Positions 6,103-64,000 of a DNA stretch of 64,000 nt are shown here, piece after piece (the stretch's first letter is position 1; every line of letters starts with the position of its first letter). Source of the stretch: Candidatus Shapirobacteria bacterium (lineage in GTDB: Bacteria; Patescibacteriota; Microgenomatia; UBA12405); assembly GCA_041659325.1 (NCBI GenBank), contig JBAZYN010000001.1:238819-302818 (forward strand), written 5' to 3'. Below the pieces are notes generated by a model. That model had not been told where the DNA came from. It worked only from the letters and a program-made list of their open reading frames with translations, and ran no database searches. A program made the translations under genes and the position numbers.

Positions 6103-6114
6103 TTTCTGTAATTC

Positions 6115-6721: not shown

Positions 6722-6722
6722 T

Positions 6723-18128: not shown

Positions 18129-18131
18129 ACT

Positions 18132-21346: not shown

Positions 21347-21401
21347 TTTTGTCTACTCCTTTATCTGCTATACTGAACTATTATTAGCTTATCCAAAATA
21401 T

Positions 21402-23415: not shown

Positions 23416-23423
23416 GTTCGTCT

Positions 23424-25250: not shown

Positions 25251-25976
25251 ATGCATAAAAAACTTCTCAAAGAACTATCAATATTTTTTCCATGCTACAA
25301 CGAGGAAAAAAACATATCAGATACGGTTGACAAAGCAGTCCCCGTTTTGAAAAAAATATCCGACCAGTGGGAAATTATATTGGTTAATGACGGTTCAAAA
25401 GATAAAACGCCCCAAGTTCTTGAAACTATCAAAAAAAAATACCCCCAAAACACTTCTATTATCACTCACAATCCCAATAGGGGATATGGGGCCGCTTTTA
25501 AAAGCGGAGTCTATAACTCAAGATACGAGTGGATTGCCTTTACAGACGCAGACGGTCAATTTGATTTTTCCGAAATTACTAAACTGATCAAAAAACAACA
25601 GACTACCGGTGCTGATTTAGTTATAGGATATTATTTAGGGAGAAAAGTCCCGTTTTACCGAATCTGGGGATCTTCTCTTTGGCAAATCGCTGTATTCATT
25701 CTTTTCGGTCTTAAAGTAAAAGATATCGACTGCGGCTTTAAACTCATTCGGAAAAAAGTAATCGACACCATTCCGAAGCTAGAGGCCGAAAGAGGGCCGT
25801 TTATATCAAGTGAATTCCTAATTAAAGCAAAAAAATCCGGTTATAAAATAGTAGAAATCGGAGTAAGTCATTTTAGTCGCACGGCCGGTGAAGCAACCGG
25901 AGCCAAACTAAACGTCATTCTGGCCGGATTCAAGGATCTGTTCCGGCTCTGGTACAAAATAAATTTCCAAAAATGA
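25251..25976 (+). CDS. Polyprenyl-phosphate sugar synthase (GT2; DPM1/ArnC/CsbB-like), cassette A
   Basis: 'FFPCYNEEKNI' is followed by 'IILVNDGSKDKT', then 'FTDADGQF' (DxD), and a C-terminal amphipathic/TM anchor. Confidence 0.7.
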   Translation: MHKKLLKELSIFFPCYNEEKNISDTVDKAVPVLKKISDQWEIILVNDGSKDKTPQVLETIKKKYPQNTSIITHNPNRGYGAAFKSGVYNSRYEWIAFTDADGQFDFSEITKLIKKQQTTGADLVIGYYLGRKVPFYRIWGSSLWQIAVFILFGLKVKDIDCGFKLIRKKVIDTIPKLEAERGPFISSEFLIKAKKSGYKIVEIGVSHFSRTAGEATGAKLNVILAGFKDLFRLWYKINFQK

Positions 25977-27469
25977 CCTTGTTTCGAAGAATCCTTGGTT
26001 ATGCTAAAACTGAAAAGACCCTAATTCTCATCCTTTTTCTTGCCGCCTTTTTCAGACTTTATGATGTTGGCGGCTATATGGAATTCTTGGGTGATCAGGG
26101 AAGGGACATGGTAATTGTCCGAGATTTCCTTAAAAACGGTAATCTTTTTTTTATCGGGCCTCAAACCAGCATCGGTAACATGTATCTCGGCCCGTTCTAC
26201 TACTACCTAATTGCCCCATCACTGCTTTTATCCGGATATAACCCCACAGGACCATCAATATTTATCGCCATTTTATCTATATTAACCGTTTTTCTGATTT
26301 ATAAAATTTCAAATAAATGGTTTAGCAAAAATACCGCCATTATTGCCTCAATTTTGTATTCTATTTCTCCGGTTGTAATTAAATACTCCAATTTCTCCTG
26401 GAATCCAAATGTAATGCCTTTATTTTCCCTGCTTTTTGTATATTTTATGGTTGAAGGTCTTACTCAAAAAAAATACCTCTATTTTATCTACGCATCTCTT
26501 TCCTATATTATGGCCATTAATTCCCATTATCTAGCCCTCCTTCTGCTCCCTCTTGCAGCAGTCTTGTGGTTTATCCACTTGTTCAAAACAAAGAAGATCT
26601 CCAAAGAGTTCTTCACTTTTACCATATACGCGATAGTAATTTTTGTGATTTCCCTGACTCCTCAGATATTATTTGACCTGAAACATCAAAACCAAAACTT
26701 AAACGCTTTAGTCAAGTTCTTTACCAACAGGGAAACCACTGTCAATCTAAAGGCTTACAAGACCCTCCCTAGCCTGATTCCTCTGACTAATCAGATCAAT
26801 TCCCGTCTCCTCCTGGGAAAAAACGAAACATTATCCCTACCGCTAACCGTCTTTATTTTTGTAGGCTCATTTCTGGTTTTTTTCAAAAAAAATACCAAAA
26901 GAACCTATTTCGTTGCCCTATTTCTGTGGTTACTTTTTGGCATCGGCGGGTTGGGACTGTACAAACAACATATATACGACCACTACTTTGGCTTTATCTT
27001 TCCGGTCCCATTTATTATTGTAGGCATAGTTTTAAGCTCGCTATTTGAATTCAACCGTTTGACCAAAATTGTCGGCTCGGCCCTGCTTCTCATTTTAGTT
27101 TATCTATCCGTTCTTGAAACACCCATCCAATACCCTCCAAACAATCAATTGCAAACTACACAAACTATCGTCAAATCAATTCTCGCTGAATCAAATAATC
27201 AACCTTTTAATTTTGCCCTTCTGGCAAAACAAAATTATGACCCGCCTTATAGGTATTATTTTTCCGAATATAACTCACAAATCTATCTTCTTCAAGATAA
27301 GATTACCGACCAACTTTTTGTAGTTTGCGAACCATGGCAGATAGACTGCCAACCGATAAACAACCCCGAATGGAATATTGCCGCCTTTGGGTGGGCAAAA
27401 ATTGACAAACAATGGCAAATAAACGGAATAACAATATTTAAGCTAACTCATAATGTTCCGAAAAATTAA
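25973..27469 (+). CDS. ArnT-like GT-C membrane glycosyltransferase, cassette A copy 1
   Basis: 'LGDQGRDMVIVRDFLKNGNLFFIGPQTSIGNMYLGPFYYYLIAP' can be compared with the ArnT 'DEARYAEI..M...GDW..P...G.PYFEKPPL.YW' loop. The protein is polytopic. Confidence 0.55.
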   Translation: MTLFRRILGYAKTEKTLILILFLAAFFRLYDVGGYMEFLGDQGRDMVIVRDFLKNGNLFFIGPQTSIGNMYLGPFYYYLIAPSLLLSGYNPTGPSIFIAILSILTVFLIYKISNKWFSKNTAIIASILYSISPVVIKYSNFSWNPNVMPLFSLLFVYFMVEGLTQKKYLYFIYASLSYIMAINSHYLALLLLPLAAVLWFIHLFKTKKISKEFFTFTIYAIVIFVISLTPQILFDLKHQNQNLNALVKFFTNRETTVNLKAYKTLPSLIPLTNQINSRLLLGKNETLSLPLTVFIFVGSFLVFFKKNTKRTYFVALFLWLLFGIGGLGLYKQHIYDHYFGFIFPVPFIIVGIVLSSLFEFNRLTKIVGSALLLILVYLSVLETPIQYPPNNQLQTTQTIVKSILAESNNQPFNFALLAKQNYDPPYRYYFSEYNSQIYLLQDKITDQLFVVCEPWQIDCQPINNPEWNIAAFGWAKIDKQWQINGITIFKLTHNVPKN

Positions 27470-28778
27470 TTCAAATGTTATCTTGCTGATAATTTTGTTG
27501 ATTTCCCTCTGCTTCAGAATCTATAAGCTCAATGAACTTTATAATTTTGACTGGGACCAGGAAGACGATGCCCAGAAAGTGACCGAAATGATCACCAGTC
27601 ATAAGCCCAGGTTGATAGGGCCAAGAGTTGCAAACGACAATGGATTCTTTGTCGGCCCATTTCATTATTATTTTTTAGTCCCTTTTTACCTTATTACCAA
27701 CAATAATCCAATCGCCGGTGCCTATGCATCAATATCTATAGGGTTAATTACGACTCTGGTTATATATGTAGTCTCTCAAAAAATATTCGGTGAAAATACC
27801 GCCCGTCTTTCCGCCCTAATTTATTCCCTACTACCATCGATTACCTCCTGGAACGTCATGTACACCGCTCCGCTATCACTTATTATATTTTATCTGTGCC
27901 ACCAACTTATTTCCGGAAAGAATAATCTTTTTCCTTTGTTGATTTTTACATATTCATTCTCAGCCACCACCCACCTTGTTCCCGTCTCTCTTTTTATCCC
28001 CATTATTATTTCTCTTTTGCTAGCCGATAAAAAACCTTCCTCAAAACAAATTATTTTAAGCCTGATACTTTCAATAATCCCCCTCATTCCCTTGATTATT
28101 TTTGACCTGAGACACCAATTTCTTAATATTAAAAACTTAATTAATTTTATATCCGTATCAAAAAATAATGACTATCCTCCGTATTTATTTTTAAGAAGTT
28201 ACTGGCGCTCAATCAATCTACTTTTTATTAAAATCCATTATTTAATAATTGTTGAAAGAATAGTGATAATTACGGCTGCTTTGACCTCCGTTTTTCTACA
28301 AAACAATAAAAAATATAAAATATTTATTTTCTCCTGGCTTTTGACCCCAATACTTATTTTGTCTTTTTATCGGGGAAATATTCCCGAATACTATTACGGA
28401 TCTTCCAACATTATAATCCCTATCCTCTTGTCTTTCCTGATTTCCAAAATATTGTCAGCAAAATTGTTGACCTTTTTTTCAGTCGCTTTCCTGACATTCC
28501 AAATTATAAATTTCCCTTCCACTCCGACTGGCATCACCCTAAAGGACAAAACGGAAGCAGTGTCTTTTTTAATTAACCAAAACCGGGATCCGATTTTTAA
28601 TGTCTCCTACGACCTCCCCTTAGGTTTTGATAACGGCTATGCATATCTTTTTCGTTATTTTGGCAAAGAACCACAGAACACCCCCGCTGGCCACTTGTAC
28701 TCCATTAGCCTTTCAACACGTCCCTCGACTGGGGAAATTGTTTATACAAACAACACTCTCAGCATTGTTCGAAAATAA
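27453..28778 (+). CDS. ArnT-like GT-C membrane glycosyltransferase, cassette A copy 2
   Basis: 'WDQEDDAQKVTEMITSHKPRLIGPRVANDNGFFVGPFHYYFLVP' belongs to the same family as the 25973 gene. It overlaps the upstream gene by 17 nt. Confidence 0.5.
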   Translation: MFRKINSNVILLIILLISLCFRIYKLNELYNFDWDQEDDAQKVTEMITSHKPRLIGPRVANDNGFFVGPFHYYFLVPFYLITNNNPIAGAYASISIGLITTLVIYVVSQKIFGENTARLSALIYSLLPSITSWNVMYTAPLSLIIFYLCHQLISGKNNLFPLLIFTYSFSATTHLVPVSLFIPIIISLLLADKKPSSKQIILSLILSIIPLIPLIIFDLRHQFLNIKNLINFISVSKNNDYPPYLFLRSYWRSINLLFIKIHYLIIVERIVIITAALTSVFLQNNKKYKIFIFSWLLTPILILSFYRGNIPEYYYGSSNIIIPILLSFLISKILSAKLLTFFSVAFLTFQIINFPSTPTGITLKDKTEAVSFLINQNRDPIFNVSYDLPLGFDNGYAYLFRYFGKEPQNTPAGHLYSISLSTRPSTGEIVYTNNTLSIVRK

Positions 28779-30325
28779 TGTCTACCATAAAAAAATTAAT
28801 AATCCCAATTCTCCTTCTCATTTTTAGCTTCTGGCAACTAAGCTCACTATCTGACAAAAGATGGCCAACCTCACACGATGGCGTTTTTCATGTCATTCGG
28901 ATCAGAGAATTTTTCTACGAGCTGTCTTCCGGCCACTTTCCTGTTCGTTGGGCCAGTAGGTTAGACAACGGCTATGGTATCCCATTGTTCAACTACATCT
29001 ACCCCGGCCCATACCTCCTCTCATCACTACCCATGTCATTTGGCATAAATGAGGTAAATTCTTATAAAATTACCATTTTTTTTGCATATTTTTTAGCGAT
29101 TTCCGGTTTCTTCTATCTATTTCGCCAAACCAACCGCTTTTTGGCCTTAATCGGTTCACTGATATATGGATTAACTCCATACGTTTTTCTAAATATTTTT
29201 GTAAGAGGGGCCCTGGGAGAAACAATCTCCATGAGTTTCATGCCCTGGGCTCTTGTAGGCATCCTTGAACGCAGAAAAATACTCACCGTTCTATCGCTCT
29301 CATTCATTCTAATCAGCCACAATTTCCTGGGAATTCTTTTTCTCTTTTTTTTGATTCTCTTTTTACTTTGGAATAAAAGACTAAACATTTTTACCGTTAC
29401 AACTATCCTATTGTCTCTTGGTCTTTCCGCTTTCTTTTTGCTACCAATGATTTTCGAAAGGCAATATATTGTTTCAGGCGCTAACAACAATTTTACCTTT
29501 AATTATCAGGAACATTTTCTTTACCTACGCCAGTTATTATATGGAAAATGGGATTACTGGTATTCCATCCCTGGGCCAAACGATGGCATGTCTTTTCAGC
29601 TTGGTTTTGCCAACATTATCATCCTGATACTATCAATCTCCACAATAATTTACAGAAAGAAAATTAACAATCTGTTTTATTTAACCGTTATTTATATTGG
29701 ATCCTGCATCCTAACTCAGGGATTTTCATTTCCGCTTTGGAAACTAATCAGACCTCTCCAAATAGTCCAATTCCCGTGGCGTTTTTTGTTTATAACCACT
29801 ATAATTTCTCCACTTTTATTTTTCGAAAACGCAAGTTATTGGATCAACAAAAAACGGACCATTACTCTCGCCGTTTCAATCGTAATTATCATCTTCGCCC
29901 TAATAAACGTCAGAAACTACCGCCGCCCTATGGATTTCCAATCACCGGAAAAATATAATGTTTATCTTGACCTTTATACCAACAAAACCACCACCGCCAT
30001 CCGCGAAGAAATATCACCCAAGTGGACTCTCAAAGAAAAATTCGCCGGCGACATTTCAAGCAGATTCACTATTTTCCCCGCTAATACAAATCTTTTTACT
30101 ATTCGCAAGAATTATTTTCCAACATGGAAACTTATCGATCTTTCAAAAAACATTGTTATTCCGATTGAGCCTGATGCCGATGGAAATATTACCGCCAAAC
30201 TCTCGGAGGGAACCTACCTGCTCAAAAACGGACAAACCCCCCTGGAGATAATTTCGAATTATATTAGCTTATTCTCCCTATTAGTTCTATTCGCCCCCTC
30301 ACTTCTCCGGGTAGCCAATAGATAA
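28778..30325 (+). CDS. YfhO-like GT-C membrane glycosyltransferase, cassette A
   Basis: The N-terminal loop is 'HDGVFHVIRIREFFYELSSGHFPVRWASRLDNGYGIPLFNYIYPGPY'. The C-terminal soluble region carries 'YFPTWKLIDLSKN...' and then a terminal TM. There are five further paralogs in the window. Confidence 0.5.
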   Translation: MSTIKKLIIPILLLIFSFWQLSSLSDKRWPTSHDGVFHVIRIREFFYELSSGHFPVRWASRLDNGYGIPLFNYIYPGPYLLSSLPMSFGINEVNSYKITIFFAYFLAISGFFYLFRQTNRFLALIGSLIYGLTPYVFLNIFVRGALGETISMSFMPWALVGILERRKILTVLSLSFILISHNFLGILFLFFLILFLLWNKRLNIFTVTTILLSLGLSAFFLLPMIFERQYIVSGANNNFTFNYQEHFLYLRQLLYGKWDYWYSIPGPNDGMSFQLGFANIIILILSISTIIYRKKINNLFYLTVIYIGSCILTQGFSFPLWKLIRPLQIVQFPWRFLFITTIISPLLFFENASYWINKKRTITLAVSIVIIIFALINVRNYRRPMDFQSPEKYNVYLDLYTNKTTTAIREEISPKWTLKEKFAGDISSRFTIFPANTNLFTIRKNYFPTWKLIDLSKNIVIPIEPDADGNITAKLSEGTYLLKNGQTPLEIISNYISLFSLLVLFAPSLLRVANR

Positions 30326-31506
30326 ACCAATATACCAATCAGCACCGCCCTACCCATCAGAAGTATTTGCCCGGACATATTTTGAATACTTAACGGAAGT
30401 TGGGACATTTCTCTTGCCGCCAAAAAAATCGCATAGTGGAGCGTTGGGTCAAACGAAAATAAAACACAAAACCATCCAAATATAGCTGCCAAATATACCA
30501 TCATCGATTCATTTTTTATTGCCCAGATGACCATCCACGGCATCAACCAAACCAACCATTGAGGGTGAAAATGGGTAAATGCCAAACTGGATAATAACCC
30601 GGCTCCAAAGGCAGTCAAGAAACTAATATTATTTTTCCAAAACAACAACAAAATTACGGAATAAGCAATAAAAAACCACGGAATAGCTGTACCTCCCGAA
30701 ATAGCGATACCGGCATAGGTACTCTTGTTGATTTGATCAGCAAACAAAGAAAAGGCTCTATAGGCCGGAGATCCAAGATACGGCAGTATTCCCAAAAAGT
30801 AAACCAACCCTCCGCAAATACCCGGGGCAATACCTCTCCAAAAATTCTTATTCCTCAAGATACTCTCCATCACCACAATTGGGATCAAAATCAATCCTAT
30901 TGGCTTAATCAAAGCTGAAATCGCCACCATAGCCGCCGTCAGGCAATATTTTTTGTTTTTTCTCGCCAAAAGTGCCAAAACTAGCCAAAAAGCAATCATA
31001 ATATCCACCTGACCCATCATCGAACCCACATAAATTCCCAGTGGATTAAATATCCACAAAATTTGTGCCAGTCGTTTTTTCTTTTGATCAATAAAAAATT
31101 TAGCCAACATAAACACGATCGCCAGATCGGCCACGATCATCGGAAGTTTGTACAACAAAAGCACCCAGTTTACTGACACACTATGAAGTATATCCCAATT
31201 AGTATTCACGATTCCTTCGGCAGTATCCAATATCAACCCCTTAAACGGTAAATAAAACAGCGATGGTAATATATAAGCCAGTGGTTGATAGTTAAAAATC
31301 ATTTTACTCGGCAAATACAAGACACTGCCGTCTTCATTAAACCTAACCGCCTGGTCATAAAACGACCAGATTTTCCCCTCGCCGGCAATATATTTTCCCG
31401 CCAAGGCAAATGCACCCAAATCCGAATGGTAGGTAGTAATAGCCAAAAAAACTCTCAGCGCGATACCGACCACCAACAGGATATAGAAAATTCTATCTTT
31501 AATCAT
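30259..31506 (-). CDS. DUF2029/GT87-like GT-C membrane protein (putative mannosyltransferase-type)
   Basis: It is polytopic. 'FNPLGIYVGSMMGQVDIMIAFWLVL' is shared with the paralog at 47033..48817. The ORF track extends to 31650, but the internal ATG at 31506 avoids a 100-nt overlap with the opposing GT2 gene. Confidence 0.45.
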   Translation of the reverse strand: MIKDRIFYILLVVGIALRVFLAITTYHSDLGAFALAGKYIAGEGKIWSFYDQAVRFNEDGSVLYLPSKMIFNYQPLAYILPSLFYLPFKGLILDTAEGIVNTNWDILHSVSVNWVLLLYKLPMIVADLAIVFMLAKFFIDQKKKRLAQILWIFNPLGIYVGSMMGQVDIMIAFWLVLALLARKNKKYCLTAAMVAISALIKPIGLILIPIVVMESILRNKNFWRGIAPGICGGLVYFLGILPYLGSPAYRAFSLFADQINKSTYAGIAISGGTAIPWFFIAYSVILLLFWKNNISFLTAFGAGLLSSLAFTHFHPQWLVWLMPWMVIWAIKNESMMVYLAAIFGWFCVLFSFDPTLHYAIFLAAREMSQLPLSIQNMSGQILLMGRAVLIGILVYLLATRRSEGANRTNRENKLI

Positions 31507-31551
31507 ATAGCTGAAGTATAACTCGAAAAGAGATTCTAGTATAATTAACCA

Positions 31552-32316
31552 ATGACAACAACCATTTCGATCATCATTCCCTGTTACAACGAAGAAGAAA
31601 ATCTTAAAAGGGGAGTCCTGGATGAGGTCAATGACTTTCTCCAAACTCAAAAGTTTAAATGGGAAGTTTTAATTTGTAACGATGAATCTACCGACAATAG
31701 CCTGAAATTGGTCCGTGAATTTGTCAATAAACACTCGGGGTTCCGTGTTTTAGACCTCCCTCATGGCGGTAAGCCTTCGGCCGTATGGGGCGGAATAAAA
31801 GAAGCTCAATATCCGCTTGTTATTTTCACCGACATGGACCAATCGACTCCCTTAAAAGAAATCAACAAACTTCTGCCATTTTTTAAGTCATATGATGTTG
31901 TTATTGGTTCCAGAGGTTCGCATAGGGAGGGAAATACATTTTTAAGAAAGCTGGGCTCTAAAATATTTCTTTTAATCAGAAAACTCATTTTACTTCACCA
32001 AATTAGCGACACTCAATGTGGTTTCAAGGCAATGAAAATTGATGTTGCCAAGAAACTATTTCCCAATCTCCAGTTCTTTAAAGAAAAGACAGGAAAGAAG
32101 GGGTGGCGAGTTTCTGCCTACGACGTTGAACTACTCTTTATGGCAGAAAAATGGGGATATTCGATTAAAGAAATTCCGGTTGAATGGAAAAATGAAGACA
32201 CCAGCACGACCAAGGGAGATCTAAATGCCCGTTACAAGAAAGAATCAATCCAAATGGCACAAGAAATTTGGAGGGTTATGAAAAACAATCTGAAGGGTGT
32301 ATATGACCAAAATTAG
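31552..32316 (+). CDS. Polyprenyl-phosphate sugar synthase (GT2; DPM1/ArnC/CsbB-like), cassette B
   Basis: 'IIIPCYNEEENL' is followed by 'VLICNDESTDNS', then 'FTDMDQST' (DxD). 'QCGFKAM' is typical of the DPM1/GtrB family. Confidence 0.7.
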   Translation: MTTTISIIIPCYNEEENLKRGVLDEVNDFLQTQKFKWEVLICNDESTDNSLKLVREFVNKHSGFRVLDLPHGGKPSAVWGGIKEAQYPLVIFTDMDQSTPLKEINKLLPFFKSYDVVIGSRGSHREGNTFLRKLGSKIFLLIRKLILLHQISDTQCGFKAMKIDVAKKLFPNLQFFKEKTGKKGWRVSAYDVELLFMAEKWGYSIKEIPVEWKNEDTSTTKGDLNARYKKESIQMAQEIWRVMKNNLKGVYDQN

Positions 32317-33820: not shown

Positions 33821-33821
33821 T

Positions 33822-35054: not shown

Positions 35055-35077
35055 GCCATTCATAGTAAAATATAATC

Positions 35078-39878: not shown

Positions 39879-39896
39879 TAAAATAACCTATCTCTT

Positions 39897-40832: not shown

Positions 40833-40834
40833 CC

Positions 40835-43681: not shown

Positions 43682-43682
43682 A

Positions 43683-44555: not shown

Positions 44556-44589
44556 AACCACCTTATTGTCCGTTATACATAAACAAAAT

Positions 44590-51850: not shown

Positions 51851-51879
51851 TAGCTTTAGTATAAAATATATGGTGTCAA

Positions 51880-56178: not shown

Positions 56179-57841
56179 AAACCACATATTTTGGATTATA
56201 ATTTTTATTGCTGCCCTTTGGCAGGGAAAATATCTTTTTAATTCGGGGTTTTATACTTTTTCAGACGAATCTCATATCGCCAATCTCCATCAAATGGTTC
56301 AAGCCTTAAAATCCGGCCAATTCCCTCCTCGTTGGGCCCCAAACTTCAGTTATAACTTCGGTCATCCATTTTTCATTTTTTATTATTTACTTCCGTCTTA
56401 TTTCGGTAGCTTTTTAAATATATTCTTAGGCCTAAGTCTAATTTGGTCACTGAAAATTACCTTTTTTATATCAACTTTGGGTTCAGGACTTGCTATGTAT
56501 TTTCTTTCCCGCCAATTTTTTACCAAAACCGTCTCAACCGCCGTGGCCCTAATTTATCTTTTTACCCCGTATCGGGCAGTAGACCTCTATGCCAGAGGTG
56601 CTGTCGGGGAATTGTTTGGCTTTCTTTTTATGCCTTTGGTTTTTTTAAGTTTTATTCTTCTGATAAAAAATAAAGATAAAAAATATTTTGCTTTTGCTGT
56701 ATTTTCACTTTTCTTTCTTATTATTTCCCACCAGTTAACATTGATTATATTTTTTCCGTTTCTTCTATTTTTGTCTATTACTTACATCTATTTTTACTAC
56801 CCACCCCAAAAAGCAAAATTTCCTTTTTTAAGAATATTTTGGGCCATTTTGCTCTCCTTTTGTCTCGCAACATATTACTTAATCCCGGCTATTTTTGAAA
56901 AAAAATACATGCAGGGGGGGACTCCTTTTAACCCCATAGATCATTTTCCATTCATAAAACAGTTAATAATTCCTTACTGGGGATACGGTGCCTCAGTTTG
57001 GGGCCCTACCGATCAACTTTCGTTTAATATCGGTATCGCCAATCTCATTGGAGTAATTTTAATTATTCCTTTTGCTATTTTCTCTCGCAATATTAAATAC
57101 AAGAGTGTCATCGTCAGTCTTTTATTATGTTTTTCTATCGCCGTTTTTATGATGAATATTCGTTCTTGGCCTCTTTGGCAGATTGTCCCCATTGCCTCGT
57201 ACATCCAATTTCCCTGGCGATTCCTAATTCTAACTACTTTTACCACTCCTCTACTAATTGGCTTCCTTTCTCTCAAAAAAAACTTCTCCTGGCTACCGAT
57301 AGTTCTGGCTGTGGTAGCTACAATCAGTACCGCAAACTATTTTCGGCCTCACAAAATTTTGAATGTTGACGATAACTATTTTTTAAATCGATTTTTTATA
57401 AATCAAAACACTCAACGCGATCCGTCTCTTATTTCCAGTGAATATCAATTAAACTCCGAAGATTACCTGCCATTGACCAACTGGACGATCAAGCGACCAA
57501 CAAGTCTTCTCTCAAAAATTGATGTTGCCCCCGAAGTCACTGTTTCAAATATAAAATATCTTTCAGAAATCTCGCTTAGTTTTACTGCCAAATCAGCAGC
57601 ACCAACAATAATTAAAATAAGTAACTACTATTATCCCGGTTGGCAAGCAAAAATTGATGGTCAGATTACTCCGGTTTTCCCGGTTGATGATACCGGTAGA
57701 ATTGGTATTAATATGTCTGCCGGTGAACACCAGGTTTTTCTCGAATTTAAAAACACACCTCTTCGTACTATCGCCGACGCGATTTCTCTTTTAACTATAG
57801 TATTTTTTGCTATCTATCTTGTCTATGAAAAACATTCATAA
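56159..57841 (+). CDS. YfhO-like GT-C membrane glycosyltransferase
   Basis: 'ANLHQMVQALKSGQFPPRWAPNFSYNFGHPFFIFYY' is the N-terminal motif. 'YYYPGWQAKIDGQITPVFPVDDTGRIGINMSAGEHQVFL' follows, then the terminal TM 'AISLLTIVFFAIYLVY'. Confidence 0.55.
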   Translation: MIQKILKNHIFWIIIFIAALWQGKYLFNSGFYTFSDESHIANLHQMVQALKSGQFPPRWAPNFSYNFGHPFFIFYYLLPSYFGSFLNIFLGLSLIWSLKITFFISTLGSGLAMYFLSRQFFTKTVSTAVALIYLFTPYRAVDLYARGAVGELFGFLFMPLVFLSFILLIKNKDKKYFAFAVFSLFFLIISHQLTLIIFFPFLLFLSITYIYFYYPPQKAKFPFLRIFWAILLSFCLATYYLIPAIFEKKYMQGGTPFNPIDHFPFIKQLIIPYWGYGASVWGPTDQLSFNIGIANLIGVILIIPFAIFSRNIKYKSVIVSLLLCFSIAVFMMNIRSWPLWQIVPIASYIQFPWRFLILTTFTTPLLIGFLSLKKNFSWLPIVLAVVATISTANYFRPHKILNVDDNYFLNRFFINQNTQRDPSLISSEYQLNSEDYLPLTNWTIKRPTSLLSKIDVAPEVTVSNIKYLSEISLSFTAKSAAPTIIKISNYYYPGWQAKIDGQITPVFPVDDTGRIGINMSAGEHQVFLEFKNTPLRTIADAISLLTIVFFAIYLVYEKHS

Positions 57842-59414
57842 GATAATATTCAGTCTAATAATTCTATTCTCCATATTTTTTCGCCTTTGGCATTTAGACT
57901 CTCTACCTTCCAGTCTAAACTGGGACGAAATATCCCATGGATATAATGCCTACTCACTTTTAAATACCGGAAAAGACCAGTGGGGGACTTCCTGGCCGAT
58001 TTTTAATTTTCGTGCTTACGGTGATTACCCCACCACCCTAAACATGTACTTAACCATACCGTTTGTCGCCCTACTTGACCCAAACGAATGGAGCGTCCGA
58101 CTTCCCTGTGCTATCGCCGGAATAATTTTCGTAATTCTTTCCTATTATCTCGGGTTGCTAATTTTCAAAGACAAAAACAAAGCTCTTTTACTAATGTTTT
58201 TGGTCGCCATCAGCCCTTGGACATTATTTCCCTCAAGAGCGGTTTTTCAATCCACTATCGCTTCAACTATAATGCTTGCCGGAATTGTTTTAATCATGTC
58301 CAAGTTCTCGATATGGGGTTTTGCTTTATTAATCCTCTCGATGTTTGCCTATCACAACACCAGAATTATAGCCCTACCACTGGGGTTGTCGGCCATATAT
58401 CTCTACGGCTTTAAAAATAAAAACAAGAAAAGCATCCTTTATCTAGCCATTTTTATCGCCGCGGCTATACCCTCCCTTGTTAATTTACTATCGCCGGGTT
58501 CCCGCGCCCGCAGTCAATGGGTGGGGATTCTTTCTCCGGCCGCGATCAATCAAATCAACGAAAATCGCCGGCTCTTCACCGGTCATCCGCCGCTAAACAG
58601 AATTATCAACAATAAAATTACCTATTTTGTTCCCCGGTTTTTTCAAAATTACCTCAATCTCTTTAACCCCGTCCCTTTATTTTTCACCGGGTCAAATCAA
58701 TTTCAATTTAATGTAGCCAACCACGGTTTACTCTTCACTGTTAGTCTGCCTTTTTTCTATCTTGGGTTAATAAAATTTTCAAAAAAAATAAAAGCCAATC
58801 GGCATTTTCAATTTATGGCTATTTGGTACCTTTTGGCCCTTCTCCCGGCTGCTTTAACTACCGGAGATTTTCCCACCATCCGAGCCGTCACCGTTTTACC
58901 CCTGCCCTTCATTTTAATAATCCTCGGGCTTGAATACCTTCCGAATATTATCCCGGTATTTACGATAATTATTATCATTCAATTTGCTCTCTATTGGCAA
59001 AAATATCAACAATATAATGTAAATTATTCGTCCTCTTGGCAATACGGTTATAAACAAGTCGTCGAATTTATCAAAGACAAATATCCTGAATATCAACAAA
59101 TTATTTTAACCAAAAAATATGGCGAACCACACGAATTTATCCTTTTTTACTGGCCATGGGATCCCGCGAATTTTCAAGATAGAAACCCGGTATGGAACTA
59201 CCATTCCTCGTGGTACTGGGTCGATGCTTTTGACAAATTTGTATTCATAAACGACTGGGAAATCAAAGAAAAAACCTCGAAATTAACCCAAAAAACTTTA
59301 CTTATCACCTCACCCGGAAACTACTATCCCGAAAACAGCCAAAAACTATCCACCATTAATTTTCTCAATGGTCAACCGGCGTTTGACATCATCACCTATG
59401 AATCTGAAAACTAA
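57825..59414 (+). CDS. PMT/ArnT-superfamily (GT39/GT83-like) GT-C membrane glycosyltransferase, paralog 5
   Basis: 'NWDEISHGYNAYSLLNTGKDQWGTSWP' is the family motif. I chose the internal ATG at 57825. Confidence 0.6.
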   Translation: MKNIHKIIFSLIILFSIFFRLWHLDSLPSSLNWDEISHGYNAYSLLNTGKDQWGTSWPIFNFRAYGDYPTTLNMYLTIPFVALLDPNEWSVRLPCAIAGIIFVILSYYLGLLIFKDKNKALLLMFLVAISPWTLFPSRAVFQSTIASTIMLAGIVLIMSKFSIWGFALLILSMFAYHNTRIIALPLGLSAIYLYGFKNKNKKSILYLAIFIAAAIPSLVNLLSPGSRARSQWVGILSPAAINQINENRRLFTGHPPLNRIINNKITYFVPRFFQNYLNLFNPVPLFFTGSNQFQFNVANHGLLFTVSLPFFYLGLIKFSKKIKANRHFQFMAIWYLLALLPAALTTGDFPTIRAVTVLPLPFILIILGLEYLPNIIPVFTIIIIIQFALYWQKYQQYNVNYSSSWQYGYKQVVEFIKDKYPEYQQIILTKKYGEPHEFILFYWPWDPANFQDRNPVWNYHSSWYWVDAFDKFVFINDWEIKEKTSKLTQKTLLITSPGNYYPENSQKLSTINFLNGQPAFDIITYESEN

Positions 59415-60990
59415 AATAATTCTAAGCATAATCACTGTCATCGCCTTTGTTCTCCGTTTTTATCAAAGCGGCAACTACCCACCCCTACTTTGGGACGAAG
59501 CTGCCATTGGCTACAACGCCTATTCCCTTACCGAAACGGGAAAAGATGAATATGGAGTTACTCTACCACTCATCTTTAAATCTTTCGGAGATTTTAAACC
59601 GGGTTTATATATTTATTTAGCCGCCCCTTTCATCAAACTTTTTGGGTTAAACGAAATCGCGGTCAGACTACCATCAATAATCATCGGCTCATTGTTACCA
59701 CTTCTTCTTTTTTTTACCATTAAAACAATCTATCCGAAATCAAATAATCGTGCTTTAATTGCTACCACTATTCTTGCACTCAATCCGTTCAACATTCATT
59801 ATTCCCGTATGGCCTGGGAAACGAATGTCCTAACCTTTGAGCTTCTGCTTGCCGCTCTATTTTTCATAAAAAATCGACATCTTCTCTCTGCCTTCATTTT
59901 TGGGCTTACCCTCTACACCTACCAAGCCGGAAAAATGACGAGCATTTTAGTAATCATCGCCTTATTCTTTACTCATCTCAGTTTAATAAAACAGCAAATA
60001 AACAAATTGACACTAAAATTTATCCTGCCTCTGGGATTAATGGCCATTCCAATTTTATTTGGCCTAATATTTAACCAAAACAGTAACCGGTTGGAAGTAA
60101 TCAGCCTAACCTCGTACCCCAGATCAGATGAAGAAACGGCTCAAATTATCAACGAGTCCGGTTTAATCGATTACACAATTTTTCATAGCCAACCGTCTTT
60201 TTTTATCCGAAGTTTTTTGGGGCGTTACTTTAACCATTTTTCCCCCCGCTTTCTTTTGTTCGAAGGGGATTGGCAAAACCCCCGCCACTCAGCTCCCTAT
60301 GTCGGCGTAATTCTCTATCCCTCAATCATTTTCCTGCTAATCGGCCTGTTTTCAAAACCAAATAAATTCTTTCTCCTCTGGCTTCTTCTGGCCCCAATTC
60401 CTGCCGCCCTCACCAGAGACCAGCTTACTGCCACCCGATCCATGTCCATGTCAATTCCTTTGGTCTTCTTTGTCGCCAGCGGAATTATAATTACAGTTCA
60501 AAAATATAATTCCAAACTGATTAATCTCGCCATATTATCTGCTTATTTACTCTCCTTTATTTACTACTCTGATCTGTATTTAAACCACATGGTCAAAAAA
60601 TCACCCAATGATTTTCTCTACGGATACAAACAAGCCGCTCAATACATTTCGAAAAACCAATCAAAGTTCGACCAAATTTATTTTACAGACTTTTACGGTC
60701 AACCATATATCTACTATCTTTTTTACTCACATTATTCCCCAGTTTCATACCAATCAAAAGCAAACTTAACCCAAACCGGGCCTGATATCGGAAAAGTAGA
60801 AAAAATAGATAACATATTATTCAAAGGCCCCGACTACAACGGCGTTAAAAGCATTCCGCACACCCTCAGTATCTTCTCCCACGATGAAATTTTAAGGCAG
60901 GGGATAGATCTGAAACCCGACTTTAATAATTTTTTCAAACTTAGCCCTATCAATAATATTTCCACCTTTTATGCCTACGAAACACCATAA
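59398..60990 (+). CDS. PMT/ArnT-superfamily (GT39/GT83-like) GT-C membrane glycosyltransferase, paralog 6
   Basis: 'LWDEAAIGYNAYSLTETGKDEYGVTLP' is the family motif. I chose the internal ATG at 59398. Confidence 0.6.
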   Translation: MNLKTKIILSIITVIAFVLRFYQSGNYPPLLWDEAAIGYNAYSLTETGKDEYGVTLPLIFKSFGDFKPGLYIYLAAPFIKLFGLNEIAVRLPSIIIGSLLPLLLFFTIKTIYPKSNNRALIATTILALNPFNIHYSRMAWETNVLTFELLLAALFFIKNRHLLSAFIFGLTLYTYQAGKMTSILVIIALFFTHLSLIKQQINKLTLKFILPLGLMAIPILFGLIFNQNSNRLEVISLTSYPRSDEETAQIINESGLIDYTIFHSQPSFFIRSFLGRYFNHFSPRFLLFEGDWQNPRHSAPYVGVILYPSIIFLLIGLFSKPNKFFLLWLLLAPIPAALTRDQLTATRSMSMSIPLVFFVASGIIITVQKYNSKLINLAILSAYLLSFIYYSDLYLNHMVKKSPNDFLYGYKQAAQYISKNQSKFDQIYFTDFYGQPYIYYLFYSHYSPVSYQSKANLTQTGPDIGKVEKIDNILFKGPDYNGVKSIPHTLSIFSHDEILRQGIDLKPDFNNFFKLSPINNISTFYAYETP

Positions 60991-62563
60991 TTATCTTCTA
61001 ATCACCATATTATTAATGGCCACTATTCTTCGTTTCTACAAAATTGGTTCCTACCCCAGCCTAAATCCGGACGAAGCCGCCCTGGGATACAACGCCTATT
61101 CACTGCTTGAAACCGGAAAAGACGAGCACGGTGCCTCCTGGCCTCTTCATTTCAAATCATTTGGTGACTACAAACCCGGCGGGTATGTTTATCTTGCCTT
61201 GCCTTTTATAAAAATACTCGGTCTCACCCCACTTGCAGTTCGATTACCAAACCTTATCCTTTCTATTCTCGCCATTTATTATTTATCCAAACTCGTTTTC
61301 CTTCTATTCGAGTCTAAAGGTCCGAGGTTGAATCGTTCAAAAGCTCAAAACCTATCGCTTTTGAGCTCTGCTGTTCTGGCTCTCTCCCCCTGGCATATTC
61401 ACTTTAGCAGGGGAGCCTGGGAGGCCTATAGTGCCCTAAGTCTGATCATTATCGGTATCTATTTTTTCTACTCACATCTTAAAAATCTCAAAAACTTCCA
61501 TCTCTATCTATCCGTTATCCTTATTTCTCTTTCGCTATATTTCTACCACTCGGCAAGAATTTTAGCTCCTCTAATCGGGCTGTCTCTGGTGACAATTAAC
61601 TTCAAAAGACTAACTCGATCAGGTATCAGAAAATTATTAATACCAATAATTATTACCATTTTATTGGCTCTACCGGTACTATTTTCCTTTGTCAGAAACG
61701 GCGGCGCCGCCCGATTTGGCGGTGTCGGACTAACCGCCGATCAGGGACCAATTTGGCGGTCAAACGAGCTACTGAATCAACACAACAATGTTAAGTTAAT
61801 TAATCGGGCCATGCACAATAAGCGGATTCTTTATTTCCTCTCCTGGGCACAAAAATATACTTCCCACTTCGATTTAAATTTCCTATTTTTAAATGGTGAT
61901 GAAGTTCCCCGATCAAAGGTACCGGAAATGGGCCAACTTTATCTTTTTGAATTACCCTTTTTAATTATTGGAATCTTTTTCTTCCTCAAATCCAGGGCAA
62001 TTAACAAAAAGACAAAAACCCTTATTCTCTCATTTTTACTTTTCGCTCCTCTGGCCTCATCTTTAACCTTTCAGGCTCCTTCCGCCCTCCGGTCTCTCCC
62101 GATGACTATTCCGTTATCAATCTTAATTGCCTACGGCCTTTATCATTTTTTTAAATGTCGTCCGCTTCTCATATTAATTGCTTTCTGCTCGCTACTTTCT
62201 ATCTTCTATTACCTCGATGCCTATTTTGTTCACTCACAAAAACGTTATCCATATGCCTGGAATCTCGGTTTTGACCAAATAGTCTCCCTGGTAGAGTCAC
62301 AAAAGAATAATTATCAAAACATATTTTTTACCTCTCGGTATGACCAACCGTATATTCTTTACTTATTTTTTTCCAAATACCCACCGCAAAAACTGCAATC
62401 TCAAATTAAATTAACCCCAAAAGACCAATACGGTTTTTCTACCGTCGATAGAATTGACAACATTACCTTTATAATTCCCACCGAAATTCCCTCCTCGTCT
62501 ATGGTCATCGAAGCTTCTGATTTCCAATTAACCGGCCAAAGCTTTAAAATATACACTAAATGA
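60971..62563 (+). CDS. PMT/ArnT-superfamily (GT39/GT83-like) GT-C membrane glycosyltransferase, paralog 7
   Basis: 'NPDEAALGYNAYSLLETGKDEHGASWP' is the family motif. Confidence 0.6.
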   Translation: MPTKHHNYLLITILLMATILRFYKIGSYPSLNPDEAALGYNAYSLLETGKDEHGASWPLHFKSFGDYKPGGYVYLALPFIKILGLTPLAVRLPNLILSILAIYYLSKLVFLLFESKGPRLNRSKAQNLSLLSSAVLALSPWHIHFSRGAWEAYSALSLIIIGIYFFYSHLKNLKNFHLYLSVILISLSLYFYHSARILAPLIGLSLVTINFKRLTRSGIRKLLIPIIITILLALPVLFSFVRNGGAARFGGVGLTADQGPIWRSNELLNQHNNVKLINRAMHNKRILYFLSWAQKYTSHFDLNFLFLNGDEVPRSKVPEMGQLYLFELPFLIIGIFFFLKSRAINKKTKTLILSFLLFAPLASSLTFQAPSALRSLPMTIPLSILIAYGLYHFFKCRPLLILIAFCSLLSIFYYLDAYFVHSQKRYPYAWNLGFDQIVSLVESQKNNYQNIFFTSRYDQPYILYLFFSKYPPQKLQSQIKLTPKDQYGFSTVDRIDNITFIIPTEIPSSSMVIEASDFQLTGQSFKIYTK

Positions 62564-63384
62564 AAAGACAAGCTACCATATCCGTCACTCTGGCAACCTA
62601 TAACGAAGAAAAAAAAATTGGCAAGTTTCTCGACTCAGTTTTCAGCTGGGCCAACGAAATAATCCTAGTTGACGGCCACTCCCAGGACAAAACCCTCTCA
62701 ATCGCCAAAAAATATAAAAACATAAAGATTATCGAAACCGATAACAAGCCGATTTTTCATATCAACAAACAGCTCGGCATCGATGCTTGTAAAAGCGATT
62801 GGATACTTCAGCTGGATGCCGACGAAATTGTCACCCCGGCACTACTTCAGGAAATTAACCAACTGCTTTCAAAGAAACCAAGCGACATCAGCGAAAATGG
62901 ATTCTGGATTAACCGCTCAAATTACTTTCTTGGAACTTTTCTAAAAAAAGGCGGTCAATATCCGGACTCCACCCTCAGACTTTACAAAAAGGGCATGGGG
63001 CGCCTTCCCTGCAAAGATGTCCACGAGCAGGCCGAAGTAAAAAATCCCGTAGGCCATTTGACAAACGATCTGCAGCACTTTGCCGACATTTCATTTTCCC
63101 GATACCTTTTAAGAGCCAACCGTTACACTACACTTTTGGCACAGGAACTTTCTCAACAAAAATTAAACATTAATTTTGTTAATTTTTTGACTTACTATTT
63201 GATAAAACCGCTTTGGTGGTTTCTAATGGCTTTTTTTCGTCACCGCGGTTATGTTGACGGGTTTCCGGGATTCGTTTTTGCCTATTTTTCGGCTCTGCGT
63301 TTTCCTATTGCCTATACCAAATATTGGGAGCTCCAAAAAACCAACCGTTCTATAAACATGTCAGATGATTGGGACACAAAATGA
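62560..63384 (+). CDS. Family 2 glycosyltransferase
   Basis: 'ISVTLATYNEEKKIGKFLDSV' is followed by 'IILVDGHSQDKT' and 'LQLDADE'. Confidence 0.7.
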   Translation: MKRQATISVTLATYNEEKKIGKFLDSVFSWANEIILVDGHSQDKTLSIAKKYKNIKIIETDNKPIFHINKQLGIDACKSDWILQLDADEIVTPALLQEINQLLSKKPSDISENGFWINRSNYFLGTFLKKGGQYPDSTLRLYKKGMGRLPCKDVHEQAEVKNPVGHLTNDLQHFADISFSRYLLRANRYTTLLAQELSQQKLNINFVNFLTYYLIKPLWWFLMAFFRHRGYVDGFPGFVFAYFSALRFPIAYTKYWELQKTNRSINMSDDWDTK

Positions 63385-63998
63385 AAAAAAATGTCAAAAT
63401 TGCCATCGATATCTCTCCTCTAAATGACGGAAACATTACCCGCGGCGTTGGCCACTACACTCAGCACTTAGTCTCGGCCATCCAAAAGGAAGTCAAAACA
63501 AATCCAAAATACGTCAATTATCAAATAGATCTCATTAAAAATTCAAAATTAGAAATTAAAAATTACGATCTAGTCCACTACCCCTATTTTGATCCTTTTT
63601 TTCTCACTCTACCCCCACAAAATAAAACTCCGTTTCTGGCTACAGTTCACGACTTGATACCACGTCAATTCAAAACCCACTTCCCGGTAGGCATAAAGGG
63701 AGAAATTAAGTGGTTGATTCAAAAACATCGCCTTCGCCAGGCAAAATATATAATTACCGTTTCCCATTTTTCCAAATATATAATCAATGATTTAATCGAA
63801 TATCCCAAAGACAAAATATTTGTCACTTATGAAGCGGCAGACGATAATTTTAAACCACGCACCGATAAAAATCTTTTGTCAGAGATTAAAGCAAAATACA
63901 ATTTACCCGATGAATTTGTGCTTTATGTCGGCGACCTCAATTGGAGCAAAAATATACCCAAACTAATCGATGTCTGTCTAAACCTAAAAATCCCTCTC
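63381..63998 (+). CDS. Family 4 (GT-B) glycosyltransferase, N-terminal part (3' end lies outside the window)
   Basis: The frame is open from the ATG at 63381, which overlaps the upstream stop as ATGA, through to the window edge. 'VKIAIDISPL...RGVGHYTQHL...VHYPYFDPF' and 'FVLYVGDLNWSKNIP' are typical of the GT4 N-terminal domain. This gene is not in the ORF track because no stop lies within the window. Confidence 0.55.
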   Translation, partial: MKKNVKIAIDISPLNDGNITRGVGHYTQHLVSAIQKEVKTNPKYVNYQIDLIKNSKLEIKNYDLVHYPYFDPFFLTLPPQNKTPFLATVHDLIPRQFKTHFPVGIKGEIKWLIQKHRLRQAKYIITVSHFSKYIINDLIEYPKDKIFVTYEAADDNFKPRTDKNLLSEIKAKYNLPDEFVLYVGDLNWSKNIPKLIDVCLNLKIPL

Positions 63999-64000
63999 GT

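Follow-up and report, generated by a model that had tools for sequence, protein, structure and literature searches.

A lineage-conserved locus of Candidatus Shapirobacteria packed with GT-C glycosyltransferases: a putative assembly line for an envelope glycan

Gene content and organization of the locus

The DNA analyzed here (the window) is a stretch of 64,000 nucleotides from contig JBAZYN010000001.1 (assembly GCA_041659325.1, positions 238,819 to 302,818), which belongs to a metagenome-assembled genome of Candidatus Shapirobacteria, a small-genome groundwater bacterium of the Candidate Phyla Radiation (CPR) from the Microgenomates group of Patescibacteria. Positions 25251-64000 of the window carry a locus of glycosyltransferase (GT) genes together with a flippase gene. 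According to the listing of open reading frames (ORFs), the locus comprises 29 complete ORFs and one ORF that is cut at 64000, where the last gene is interrupted and beyond which the locus runs on. Nineteen of these 30 genes encode membrane proteins of the GT-C type; the other 11 encode eight GT2 enzymes, two GT4 enzymes and one Wzx flippase. A preliminary description had reported an island of about 19 GT-C proteins with two DPM1/ArnC-like GT2 enzymes, eight soluble GT2/GT4 enzymes and a Wzx flippase in a small-genome bacterium. All of these ORFs were found at the coordinates given there, the host is as it had supposed, and the GT-C genes do far outnumber the two GT2 genes that resemble donor synthases.

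The genes are packed as in an operon, neighbors overlapping or lying less than 30 bp apart, with all intergenic gaps in 25251-64000 being 60 bp or shorter and start and stop codons often overlapping. They form five strand blocks (+ 25251-30325, - 30259-31509, + 31552-45402, - 45399-51850, + 51880-64000). With 19-20 GT-C genes, the locus of about 39 kb takes up about 7% of the 574 kb contig. Proteins identical to the products of 38241-39878 and 50477-51850 carry the NCBI locus tags WC841_01470 and WC841_01520, respectively. The genes are listed below with strand, class and best evidence, and are named in the text by their first coordinate.

25251-25976, +, GT2, first polyprenyl-phosphate-sugar synthase-like enzyme, conserved core; Glycos_transf_2 3.5e-30
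25973-27469, +, GT-C family B, conserved core; PMT_2 1.3e-12, 48.7 bits against a cut-off of 26.1
27453-28778, +, GT-C family B, variable member with few close orthologues; PMT_2 1.4e-06, 25-26% identity to 25973
28778-30325, +, GT-C family C, variable member; BLASTP 2e-47 to 56159 and 1e-37 to 35078, motifs SGHFPVRW and FPWR
30259-31509, -, GT-C family D (GT87/DUF2029-like); GT87 7.9e-05, under the cut-off, 24% identity to 47033
31552-32316, +, GT2, second polyprenyl-phosphate-sugar synthase-like enzyme, conserved core; Glycos_transf_2 1e-24
32297-33820, +, GT-C class sG (PMT_2-like), conserved core; forms a pair with GT2 31552, hhalign match to family A
33822-35054, +, GT-C family B, variable member; PMT_2 7.3e-05
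35078-36793, +, GT-C family C, conserved core; PTPS_related 27.0 against 26.4
36730-38220, +, Wzx-type (MOP) flippase, conserved core; Polysacc_synt_3 2.3e-43, Polysacc_synt 3.3e-21, orthologues in 64 loci
38241-39878, +, GT-C family E, directly after Wzx; no Pfam model
39897-40832, +, soluble GT2, conserved core; Glycos_transf_2 1.8e-18, orthologues in 63 loci
40835-41749, +, soluble GT2, conserved core; Glyco_tranf_2_3 1.9e-14, orthologues in 58 loci
41740-42534, +, soluble GT2, conserved core; Glycos_transf_2 3.3e-17, orthologues in 59 loci
42464-43681, +, soluble GT4 (GT-B fold), conserved core; Glycos_transf_1 6.2e-25, orthologues in 53 loci
43575-44555, +, soluble GT2, conserved core; Glycos_transf_2 4.5e-23, orthologues in 48 loci
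44539-45402, +, soluble GT2, conserved core; Glycos_transf_2 4e-25, orthologues in 39 loci
45399-47084, -, GT-C family A, variable arm; PMT_2 1.4e-04, BLASTP to 51880 6e-66, DE motif
47033-48817, -, GT-C family D (GT87-like), variable arm; GT87 1.6e-08, 35 bits against a cut-off of 25
48810-50477, -, GT-C family A, variable arm; no Pfam match, BLASTP to 59368 5e-47, GYNAYS and TGKDE
50477-51850, -, GT-C class F; no Pfam match, hhalign match to family A
51880-53514, +, GT-C family A; PMT_2 1.2e-06, BLASTP to 45399 1e-67
53511-55175, +, GT-C family C; PTPS_related 28.8 bits against 26.4, 40% identity to 35078
55168-56178, +, family C paralogue, truncated (336 aa); alignment covers only the family C N-terminal part
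56159-57841, +, GT-C family C; BLASTP to 53511 and 35078 1e-62, motifs SGQFPPRW, FPWR and YYPGW
57807-59414, +, GT-C family A; PMT_2 2e-05, PMT 4.4e-04, DE..GYNAYS motif
59368-60990, +, GT-C family A, best Pfam support; PMT 1.2e-10 (41.8 bits against 22.7), PMT_2 8.4e-09
60971-62563, +, GT-C family A; no Pfam match, 36-37% identity to 59368 (E 1e-84)
62560-63384, +, soluble GT2; Glycos_transf_2 6.6e-20
63381-64000, +, GT4 N-terminal domain, cut by the window end; Glyco_transf_4 1.4e-10

An independent assembly from Logan contains a contig of 13.3 kb that matches window positions 50250-63563 at 100%. Look-ups for DNA past position 64000 yielded nothing other than this contig. No DNA repeats longer than about 100 bp at 73% identity were found in the locus. 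The GC content is 0.378 in the locus and 0.393 in its flanks. An assembly artefact or a recent tandem amplification was rejected because the paralogues are 24-40% identical, DNA repeats are absent and the independent assembly is identical. Recent horizontal acquisition was rejected as well, since the GC content is near that of the flanks and the core of the locus is syntenic throughout the lineage.

The start of some genes requires comment. For 30259-31509, Met at 31509 is the likely start, with the longest ORF extending to 31650; for 38241-39878, the longest ORF begins at 38199 and NCBI annotates the 545-aa form. The start codons of the divergent genes 50477-51850 (-) and 51880-53514 (+) lie just 29 bp apart, which leaves hardly any space for two promoters, so that one of these two start codons may be miscalled. 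As to base composition, GC skew is negative in all 2 kb bins of window 1-64000 (-0.06 to -0.31) irrespective of gene strand, and therefore the C-rich strand carries most genes. The sign of AT skew depends on which strand encodes the membrane proteins: GT-C genes on the + strand have about -0.16 and those on the - strand +0.10 to +0.13.

Identity and classes of the membrane proteins

The 19 membrane proteins are 336-594 aa long and each displays 6-12 hydropathy peaks. Classes were drawn from all-against-all BLASTP, profile comparisons (hhalign) and fold searches. BLASTP yielded family A (six members in the region and the upstream gene 11990-13459), family B (three), family C (five), family D (two) and three singletons. 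By these comparisons, the GT-C proteins of the locus are assigned to seven classes: A, B, C, D, E, F and sG. Four families had been distinguished before; their tally of 7, 4, 6 and 2 is recovered only if F joins A, sG joins B and E joins C, but the division itself gave way to the seven classes.

In the region, class A comprises 45399 (-), 48810 (-), 51880 (+), 57807 (+), 59368 (+) and 60971 (+), and the first loop of all six reads DE..GY(N/Q)..(S/T). Class B (25973, 27453 and 33822) shares a DQ motif. This part of the motif 'GDQGRD', to which an ArnT-like family had been tied, is thus common to B, but the full motif occurs in 25973 only. Gene 33822 gives BLASTP values of 3e-14 to 3e-20 with 27453, varying with the query direction, and of 4e-13 to 3e-15 with 25973. 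Class C contains 28778, 35078, 53511, 56159 and the truncated 55168. Class D (30259 and 47033, both -) is marked by MGQ.D and an invariant first-loop Asp, a feature which we take to be PimE-like and use as a lead, not as a test. Classes E (38241-39878), F (50477-51850, -) and sG (32297, motif FGDEAIY) are single genes.

Pfam matches to the GT-C families PMT, PMT_2, GT87 and PTPS_related were obtained, several of them above gathering cut-offs. The gathering score of PMT (PF02366) is exceeded by 59368 only (41.8 versus 22.7), with 57807 staying under it (20.3); the remaining family A members have weak PMT_2 matches or none. Against GT87/DUF2029 (PF09594; cut-off 25), 47033 scores 35.0 and 30259 scores 22.9. 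PTPS_related (PF10131, GT-C clan; cut-off 26.4) is passed by a small margin by 35078 (27.0) and 53511 (28.8). The single-gene classes E and F as well as 48810 and 60971 have no Pfam match of their own.

The singletons sG and F could be connected to family A. Of the 36 sG orthologues, 30 match PMT_2 (best 8e-16), and hhalign of sG against family A gave 99% probability (E 8e-18). The F profile, built from 42 sequences, aligns with family A from about column 95 on (98.3% probability, E 2.4e-14), and three of 96 F homologues carry a precomputed PMT_2 (PF13231) match. On this profile evidence, F is related to A but divergent, the long DE..GYNAYS loop being absent.

The preliminary description had predicted that acidic first-loop motifs would be conserved in homologues, and such conservation was observed at 93-100%, over 39-96 sequences per class from dozens of species. 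In family A, D43/E44 are present in 97% of the window members and homologues; in family B, D41 in 98% of 96 sequences; in family C, D37 and D38 in 97% and 94%, respectively; in family D, D26 in 100% of 39 sequences. In sG, D40 and E41 are invariant (36 orthologues, 52-60% identical), and D30 is invariant in family E. In class F the first loop is shorter ('YPPxEEQL'); within it, 39 of 42 sequences (93%) have Glu or Asp at position 31. The acidic loop is predicted to lie on the extracytoplasmic side, judging from the K/R-rich N-termini.

The exception to the acidic first loop is the truncated 55168, which lacks the conserved Asp pair and has 'SAP' in place of HDD. No orthologue of it was found in the sampled loci. 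The same 336-aa gene is also called in the independent Logan contig. It is probably a degenerate, decaying copy of family C, and it is the only clearly defective one among the membrane GT-C proteins.

AF2 models of 35078 (family C) and 38241 (family E) contain about 13 membrane helices each, which in 35078 are followed by a C-terminal beta-sandwich and a C-terminal transmembrane (TM) helix. In fold searches, the top matches were GT-C enzymes only, with MFS and other transporters appearing at a Foldseek probability of about 0.1. The folds closest to C and E are mostly those of the peptide-modifying GT-C enzymes Pmt4, Pmt2, STT3B, PglB, AglB and DPY19; the fold scores of ArnT, AftA, AftD and ALG12, enzymes that act on acceptors other than proteins, are nearly as high. 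Together with the Pfam clan matches, this demonstrates that the membrane ORFs are, as had been proposed for them, GT-C glycosyltransferases and not transporters. By analogy with their class, they would use polyprenyl-phosphate or polyprenyl-diphosphate sugars as donors.

More specific assignments were not obtained. PMT_4TMC (PF16192) and MIR (PF02815) have no match in any ORF at E<=0.01. No membrane protein matches the NCBIfam ArnT equivalog at E<=0.01, and ArnT is resembled at fold level only. In NCBIfam searches with all 20 membrane proteins, only Agl23 (TIGR03663) was matched, weakly and under threshold, which says no more than that they are GT-C homologues in general. A PDB sequence search with the profiles of A, B, C, D and E and a deeper C alignment gave chance matches only and no GT-C match; kinship with solved GT-C structures is therefore visible at fold level only. 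The label 'YfhO-like', previously attached to family C, found no support: Pfam YfhO (PF09586) is not matched in family C at E<=0.01, nor in its 120 best homologues, which match PF10131 or PF13231 (PMT_2) and bear the NCBI name glycosyltransferase family 39. This judgment refers to Pfam only, no solved YfhO structure being among the fold matches of family C.

Soluble glycosyltransferases, candidate donor synthases and the flippase

Two of the GT2 enzymes, 25251 and 31552, stand apart from the other soluble enzymes. They are the sole GT2 enzymes of the locus whose top PDB and NCBIfam matches are polyprenyl-phosphate-sugar synthases (including PpgS), and they align with such synthases across essentially the whole catalytic domain. 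For 25251, the PDB matches are ArnC (8e-16), DPMS 5mlz (1e-12) and GtrB (2e-11), and the top NCBIfam match is ArnC (6.7e-20, under the family cut-off). For 31552, the PDB matches are GtrB (3e-14), DPMS (1.4e-13) and ArnC (4e-10), and the NCBIfam matches are dolichyl-phosphate-hexose transferase (3.5e-15) and PgfS (5e-15). Orthologues of at least 45% identity are present in 37 loci for 25251 and in 58 loci for 31552.

Each of the two genes forms a conserved pair with a GT-C neighbor (25251 with 25973, and 31552 with 32297). Gene 25973 overlaps its GT2 partner by 4 bp, and its orthologues are present in 40 loci at 45% identity or more. The six other GT2/GT4 enzymes of the core gave NCBIfam matches to ordinary nucleotide-sugar transferases.

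A Wzx-associated GT-C family

The gene 38241-39878 (E) directly follows wzx in the window and in every related locus examined. In terms of sequence, E founds a GT-C family for which there is no Pfam model: it does not match STT3 (PF02516), has no Pfam match whatever at E<=1 and has no PDB sequence match. The family is large, with 1303 clusters at 50% identity (E<=1e-3). The structural model has the GT-C fold and what appears to be an extracytoplasmic alpha/beta domain at the C-terminus. The best Foldseek matches are DPY19, STT3 and AglB (E 7e-8 to 1e-5), the folds of oligosaccharyltransferase (OST), DPY19 and PMT being resembled. A WWDYG-like motif was found in 0 of 39 family members. The segments 'TYPYD' and 'YxYETT' are conserved in E, and H29/D30, E141, D268/R269 and R311 are candidates for binding the metal or the donor.

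Among the 150 best family E representatives, 39 are proteins of 900-1170 aa from other lineages in which E forms the C-terminal half (fusion proteins among representatives P0350-P0481). The fused N-terminal part of 450-590 aa, here called X, is a soluble domain with a signal peptide and matches DUF3863/PDB 3lm3 only weakly. One database representative (P0378, 1639 aa) is a fusion of Wzx, X and E. X is not present in the window; in four related loci its gene lies just upstream of E, at the following positions.

Locus L056, 3495-4649, X domain gene upstream of E
Locus L071, 8666-9820, X domain gene upstream of E
Locus L077, 8735-9889, X domain gene upstream of E
Locus L080, 291-1469, X domain gene upstream of E

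Most likely, E acts on the flipped lipid-linked oligosaccharide as a transferase, ligase or polymerase.

Conserved core and variable arms

One genome per GTDB species was scanned with the family E profile, which gave 80 loci; gene order was compared in the 47 related loci with a length of 15 kb or more. Where the records are informatively titled, they name Shapirobacteria, Woesebacteria, Microgenomates or Patescibacteria. About half of the 80 records are titled 'uncultured Gammaproteobacteria', and single ones 'Candidatus Methanoperedens' and 'Bacteroidales'; such titles on loci of the Shapirobacteria type probably reflect mislabeled or contaminated bins.

The order GT2-B-(B)-GT2-sG-(B)-C-Wzx-E is kept in all 47 loci that reach that far, and after E the relatives carry a variable series of GT2, A, D and C genes. 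A core of about 20 kb (25251-45402) is syntenic. It holds eight GT-A/GT-B enzymes, among them the six soluble glycosyltransferases at 39897-45402 (BLASTP), four GT-C proteins and Wzx. At 45% identity or more, orthologues of the core genes were found in 37-64 loci, and those of 27453, 28778, 30259, 33822 and the genes of the arms in 0-6 loci only. In one relative, a 21 kb locus centered on F contains 10-11 GT-C genes (seven A, one C, one or two D, and F), and dense GT-C arms are therefore regarded as general. The term 'island' used for the locus holds as far as it denotes a contiguous locus, but not in the sense of strain-specific cargo, since the core of about 20 kb is lineage-wide, only the arms vary and the GC content is flank-like.

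The closest orthologue elsewhere is 35-61% identical (49-61% except for 56159), compared with 24-40% for the best paralogue in the window. Orthologues that are closer than in-window paralogues, together with the lack of DNA repeats, argue for old subfamilies that were differentially retained and against recent amplification. Judged by these identities, the GT-C paralogues are ancient, their subfamilies having been kept since before speciation.

Genes upstream of the locus

Window positions 1-25167 contain housekeeping and envelope genes, encoding a class I tRNA synthetase of the Trp/Tyr type, sortase, GreA, LysRS, SerRS, SecA, BipA, cyclophilin, a release factor, a LytR-CpsA-Psr (LCP) ligase, FtsE/FtsX, an M23 peptidase and a DUF11 surface protein. 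Among them is a 20th GT-C gene of family A (11990-13459, +, 489 aa; BLASTP 4e-37 to 48810 and 6e-34 to 60971), which has VDE..GYNAYS..TGKDE and stands alone between secA and a DHH phosphoesterase gene, 12 kb upstream of the locus. A membrane ORF of 200 aa (11398-12000) precedes and overlaps it; for this ORF no Pfam match was found at E<=0.001 and a rescan gave a chance-level value of 0.019 only.

Closer to the locus, positions 19618-24539 encode the LCP glycopolymer ligase, an S-adenosylmethionine-dependent methyltransferase, FtsE/FtsX and a coiled-coil EnvC-like M23 peptidase. The LCP enzyme is a candidate for linking a lipid-linked glycan to peptidoglycan. The DUF11 surface protein (24541-25167, -) is encoded directly upstream of the locus and ends in VPTTG, a hydrophobic stretch and the tail RKLARGF. 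This end resembles a sortase sorting signal, and the protein is possibly a wall-anchored neighbor of the glycan system. The sortase gene lies at 2475-3200 (-). Furthermore, LysRS (3922-6102; class II core and anticodon-binding OB fold) has a C-terminal B3/4 domain (3.4e-25). The B3/4 domain is normally found in the PheRS beta subunit, and this LysRS is therefore an unusual fusion.

Proposed function and alternatives

With moderate confidence, we read the locus as a chromosomal, lineage-conserved assembly line for an envelope glycan that would work in two stages, in a manner similar to the synthesis of mycobacterial lipomannan (LM) and lipoarabinomannan (LAM) or to the endoplasmic reticulum (ER) lumen. 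What is demonstrated is the gene content, the fold of the GT-C proteins, the acids conserved in the first loop and the division into core and arms; the mechanism proposed on this ground is conditional. In the first stage, at the cytoplasmic face, the six soluble GT2/GT4 enzymes (39897-45402) would build an oligosaccharide on a polyprenyl-diphosphate carrier, which Wzx (36730) would move across the membrane. The TM-less GT2 enzymes 25251 and 31552 would load polyprenyl phosphate with monosaccharides, each being encoded directly upstream of a presumably dedicated, conserved GT-C (25973 and 32297, respectively), as in ArnC/ArnT or GtrB/GtrX. In the second stage, at the outer face, the GT-C enzymes would draw on these lipid-phosphate sugars and add extensions and branches to the flipped glycan or the final acceptor, with one linkage per enzyme, and E would handle the flipped lipid-linked oligosaccharide in one of the roles named above. 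The conserved core could thus provide an invariant inner structure and the variable arms (A, D, C and F paralogues with extra GT2/GT4 enzymes) outer diversity. Candidate final acceptors are peptidoglycan, a lipid anchor or surface proteins; the LCP ligase, encoded 4.6 kb upstream, could link the polymer to peptidoglycan.

Several points weigh against this proposal. The two candidate synthases score far under the NCBIfam equivalog cut-offs, so that the evidence for them is that of best match, and neither 25251 (241 aa) nor 31552 (254 aa) has a TM helix, whereas ArnC, GtrB, CsbB and PfDPMS have C-terminal ones. TM-less relatives of such synthases do exist, the NCBIfam models of PpgS and of the haloarchaeal dolichyl-phosphate-hexose transferase being 213-226 positions long. 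In view of these scores and of the missing helices, both enzymes are candidates that are synthase-like at the level of the family and not assignable to a specific sugar. Moreover, no initiating phosphoglycosyltransferase (WecA/WbaP type; Bac_transf, Glycos_transf_4) and no recognizable Wzy polymerase were found in the 64 kb window, the single Wzy_C match (0.0095) lying in the truncated 55168. A small flippase of the GtrA/GtcA or ArnE/F type had no Pfam match among window ORFs of at least 150 aa, small ORFs in the upstream gaps 3201-3438, 6103-6722 and 17749-18541 (238-793 bp) not being included in the scan; the locus itself, with its gaps of at most 60 bp, has no space for such a gene. Two steps of the model, initiation and the flipping of lipid-phosphate sugars, must therefore rely on genes elsewhere. 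The variability of the arms was sampled within 10 kb on either side of E and in the one F-centered locus. Finally, we infer the donor, the acceptor and the order of action from sequence.

A dedicated protein glycosylation system, in which the family A members would be PMT-like O-glycosyltransferases, each with surface-protein targets of its own, and E would transfer the Wzx-flipped oligosaccharide en bloc to proteins like OST, is possible but considered unlikely. The combinatorial or target-specific decoration suggested in the preliminary description is a hypothesis, and its version for surface proteins essentially coincides with this reading. Such a system would fit the Pfam PMT matches of family A (59368, 41.8 versus 22.7), the peptide-modifying enzymes among the nearest folds of E and C, and the presence of sortase and the DUF11 surface protein in the vicinity, and the synthase-like GT2 enzymes match PgfS, the synthase of streptococcal protein O-glycosylation (PMC12041528). 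However, WWDYG is absent from all 39 E members and STT3 is not matched even at E<=1, while ArnT, AftA, AftD and ALG12, whose acceptors are not proteins, are nearly equal in fold score. Ser/Thr/Pro-rich acceptor-like regions were looked for and found in no protein of the window. In addition, the GT87-like family D and the folds resembling arabinosyl- and mannosyltransferases suit glycolipid or polysaccharide acceptors, and elsewhere E is fused to a secreted domain that weakly resembles DUF3863 (PDB 3lm3).

A more doubtful reading is that of a bacterial counterpart of the ER-lumenal line, in which the GT-C enzymes would remodel a Wzx-flipped oligosaccharide and E would pass it en bloc to surface proteins or the wall. 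If it were true, E would represent an unrecognized WWDYG-less class of OST/DPY19-like GT-C enzymes, and the variable arms would be a surface glycan code of each lineage's own that could matter for recognition between episymbiont and host.

It is quite improbable that the paralogues are mostly redundant, decaying or pseudo-enzymes and that the real task is a modification of one or two steps. With 336 aa, the product of 55168-56178 is indeed truncated and has no Asp pair, F has no long DE..GYNAYS loop and several members have no Pfam match of their own. But the other members are full length, with the loop acid conserved at 93-100% across species, and paralogues that are only 24-40% identical have orthologues of 35-61% identity in other species (49-61% except for one). 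DNA-level repeats are absent, and 39 kb of dead weight would be unlikely on a contig of about 0.57 Mb. Hardly any weight is given to the notion that the membrane ORFs are transporters or other non-glycosyltransferases, or that the cluster is an assembly artefact: several ORFs do lack a Pfam, NCBIfam or PDB sequence match, but fold searches are topped by GT-C enzymes only, with transporters at a Foldseek probability of about 0.1, GT-C clan matches are present in Pfam, and the identical independent assembly and the synteny in 47 relatives refute it as well.

CPR bacteria (Patescibacteria) account for a large part of bacterial diversity and are episymbionts with minimal genomes, whose cell surface is almost uncharacterized. 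Conservation of the core in dozens of species speaks for a complex surface glycan that is central, and not accessory, to their biology. The locus yields candidates for study, namely two lipid-phosphate-sugar synthases, seven GT-C classes and the new Wzx-associated family, and it may offer new enzymes for glyco-engineering.

Comparison with known systems

No description of such a locus was found in the literature on Shapirobacteria glycosyltransferases and on GT-C enzymes of Patescibacteria; what comes nearest among reports on CPR bacteria is a brief reference to genes for GT87 and Dol-P-Man synthase in one Saccharibacteria genome. Known systems had been summarized as pairing one GT-A with one GT-C. 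This rule is too narrow. It describes the three-component periplasmic glycosylation systems, which have a one-to-one arrangement and use a lipid-phosphate-sugar donor outside the membrane (PMC11127046), but in mycobacteria polyprenyl-phosphate-mannose derived from Ppm1 feeds many GT-C enzymes in series (PMC3485146, PMC2157549). On a smaller scale, streptococcal Pgf O-glycosylation is related, with PgfS as the one GT-A synthase and PgfM1 and PgfM2 as two GT-C enzymes (PMC12041528).

A closer analogue than the one-to-one systems is the assembly of LM, LAM and arabinogalactan in mycobacteria and corynebacteria (Ppm1 and the DPA pathway; PimE, MptA/B/C, AftA-D and EmbA-C). There, one or two synthases serve many outer-face GT-C enzymes, each of which forms one linkage (PMC3485146, PMC2157549), as would be the case in Shapirobacteria, and GT87-like and ArnT/PMT-like folds coexist in both. 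The catalytic domain of Ppm1 has no TM helices of its own, as is the case for 25251 and 31552, and in the mycobacterial system an LCP ligase links the product to peptidoglycan. Unlike in mycobacteria, where the genes are dispersed over a 4 Mb genome, the GT-C genes of Shapirobacteria lie in one 39 kb locus of a CPR host (contig of about 0.57 Mb), the enzymes of families A-F, which gave no sequence match in PDB, are not orthologues of those in mycobacteria, and a Wzx flippase and six cytoplasmic glycosyltransferases belong to the core.

The two pairs of a synthase-like GT2 and a GT-C resemble the three-component systems (GtrA/GtrB/GtrX, ArnC/ArnE-F/ArnT, CsbB/GtcA/YfhO and PgfS/PgfM1). The locus differs from these in having no small flippase, in synthases without C-terminal TM helices, in the lack of a YfhO Pfam match and in 17 more GT-C genes without a synthase of their own.

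The ER lumen is a second analogue. There, soluble glycosyltransferases build a lipid-linked oligosaccharide, which is flipped and extended by many GT-C enzymes using two lipid-phosphate-sugar donors before a GT-C transfers it; DPM1 and ALG5 feed ALG3/9/12/6/8/10, PIG-M/V/B/Z and PMT, with OST as the final step. No kinship exists at sequence level between that system and the Shapirobacteria locus, and the carriers here would be bacterial polyprenols. Unlike the OST of the ER, E has neither WWDYG nor the STT3 Pfam signature. E appears similar to PglB, AglB, STT3 and DPY19 in its GT-C fold, its alpha/beta C-terminal domain and the oligosaccharide flippase encoded next door, but differs from them in lacking WWDYG, a PF02516 match and any PDB sequence match.

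The principle of few donors and many GT-C enzymes is thus already known, and the ratio alone is not unprecedented. What is distinct here is the packing into a single locus, the very small host genome, the divergent families and the new Wzx-associated GT-C family. The locus thereby widens the range of such architectures, which have so far been found mainly in Actinobacteria and in the eukaryotic ER.

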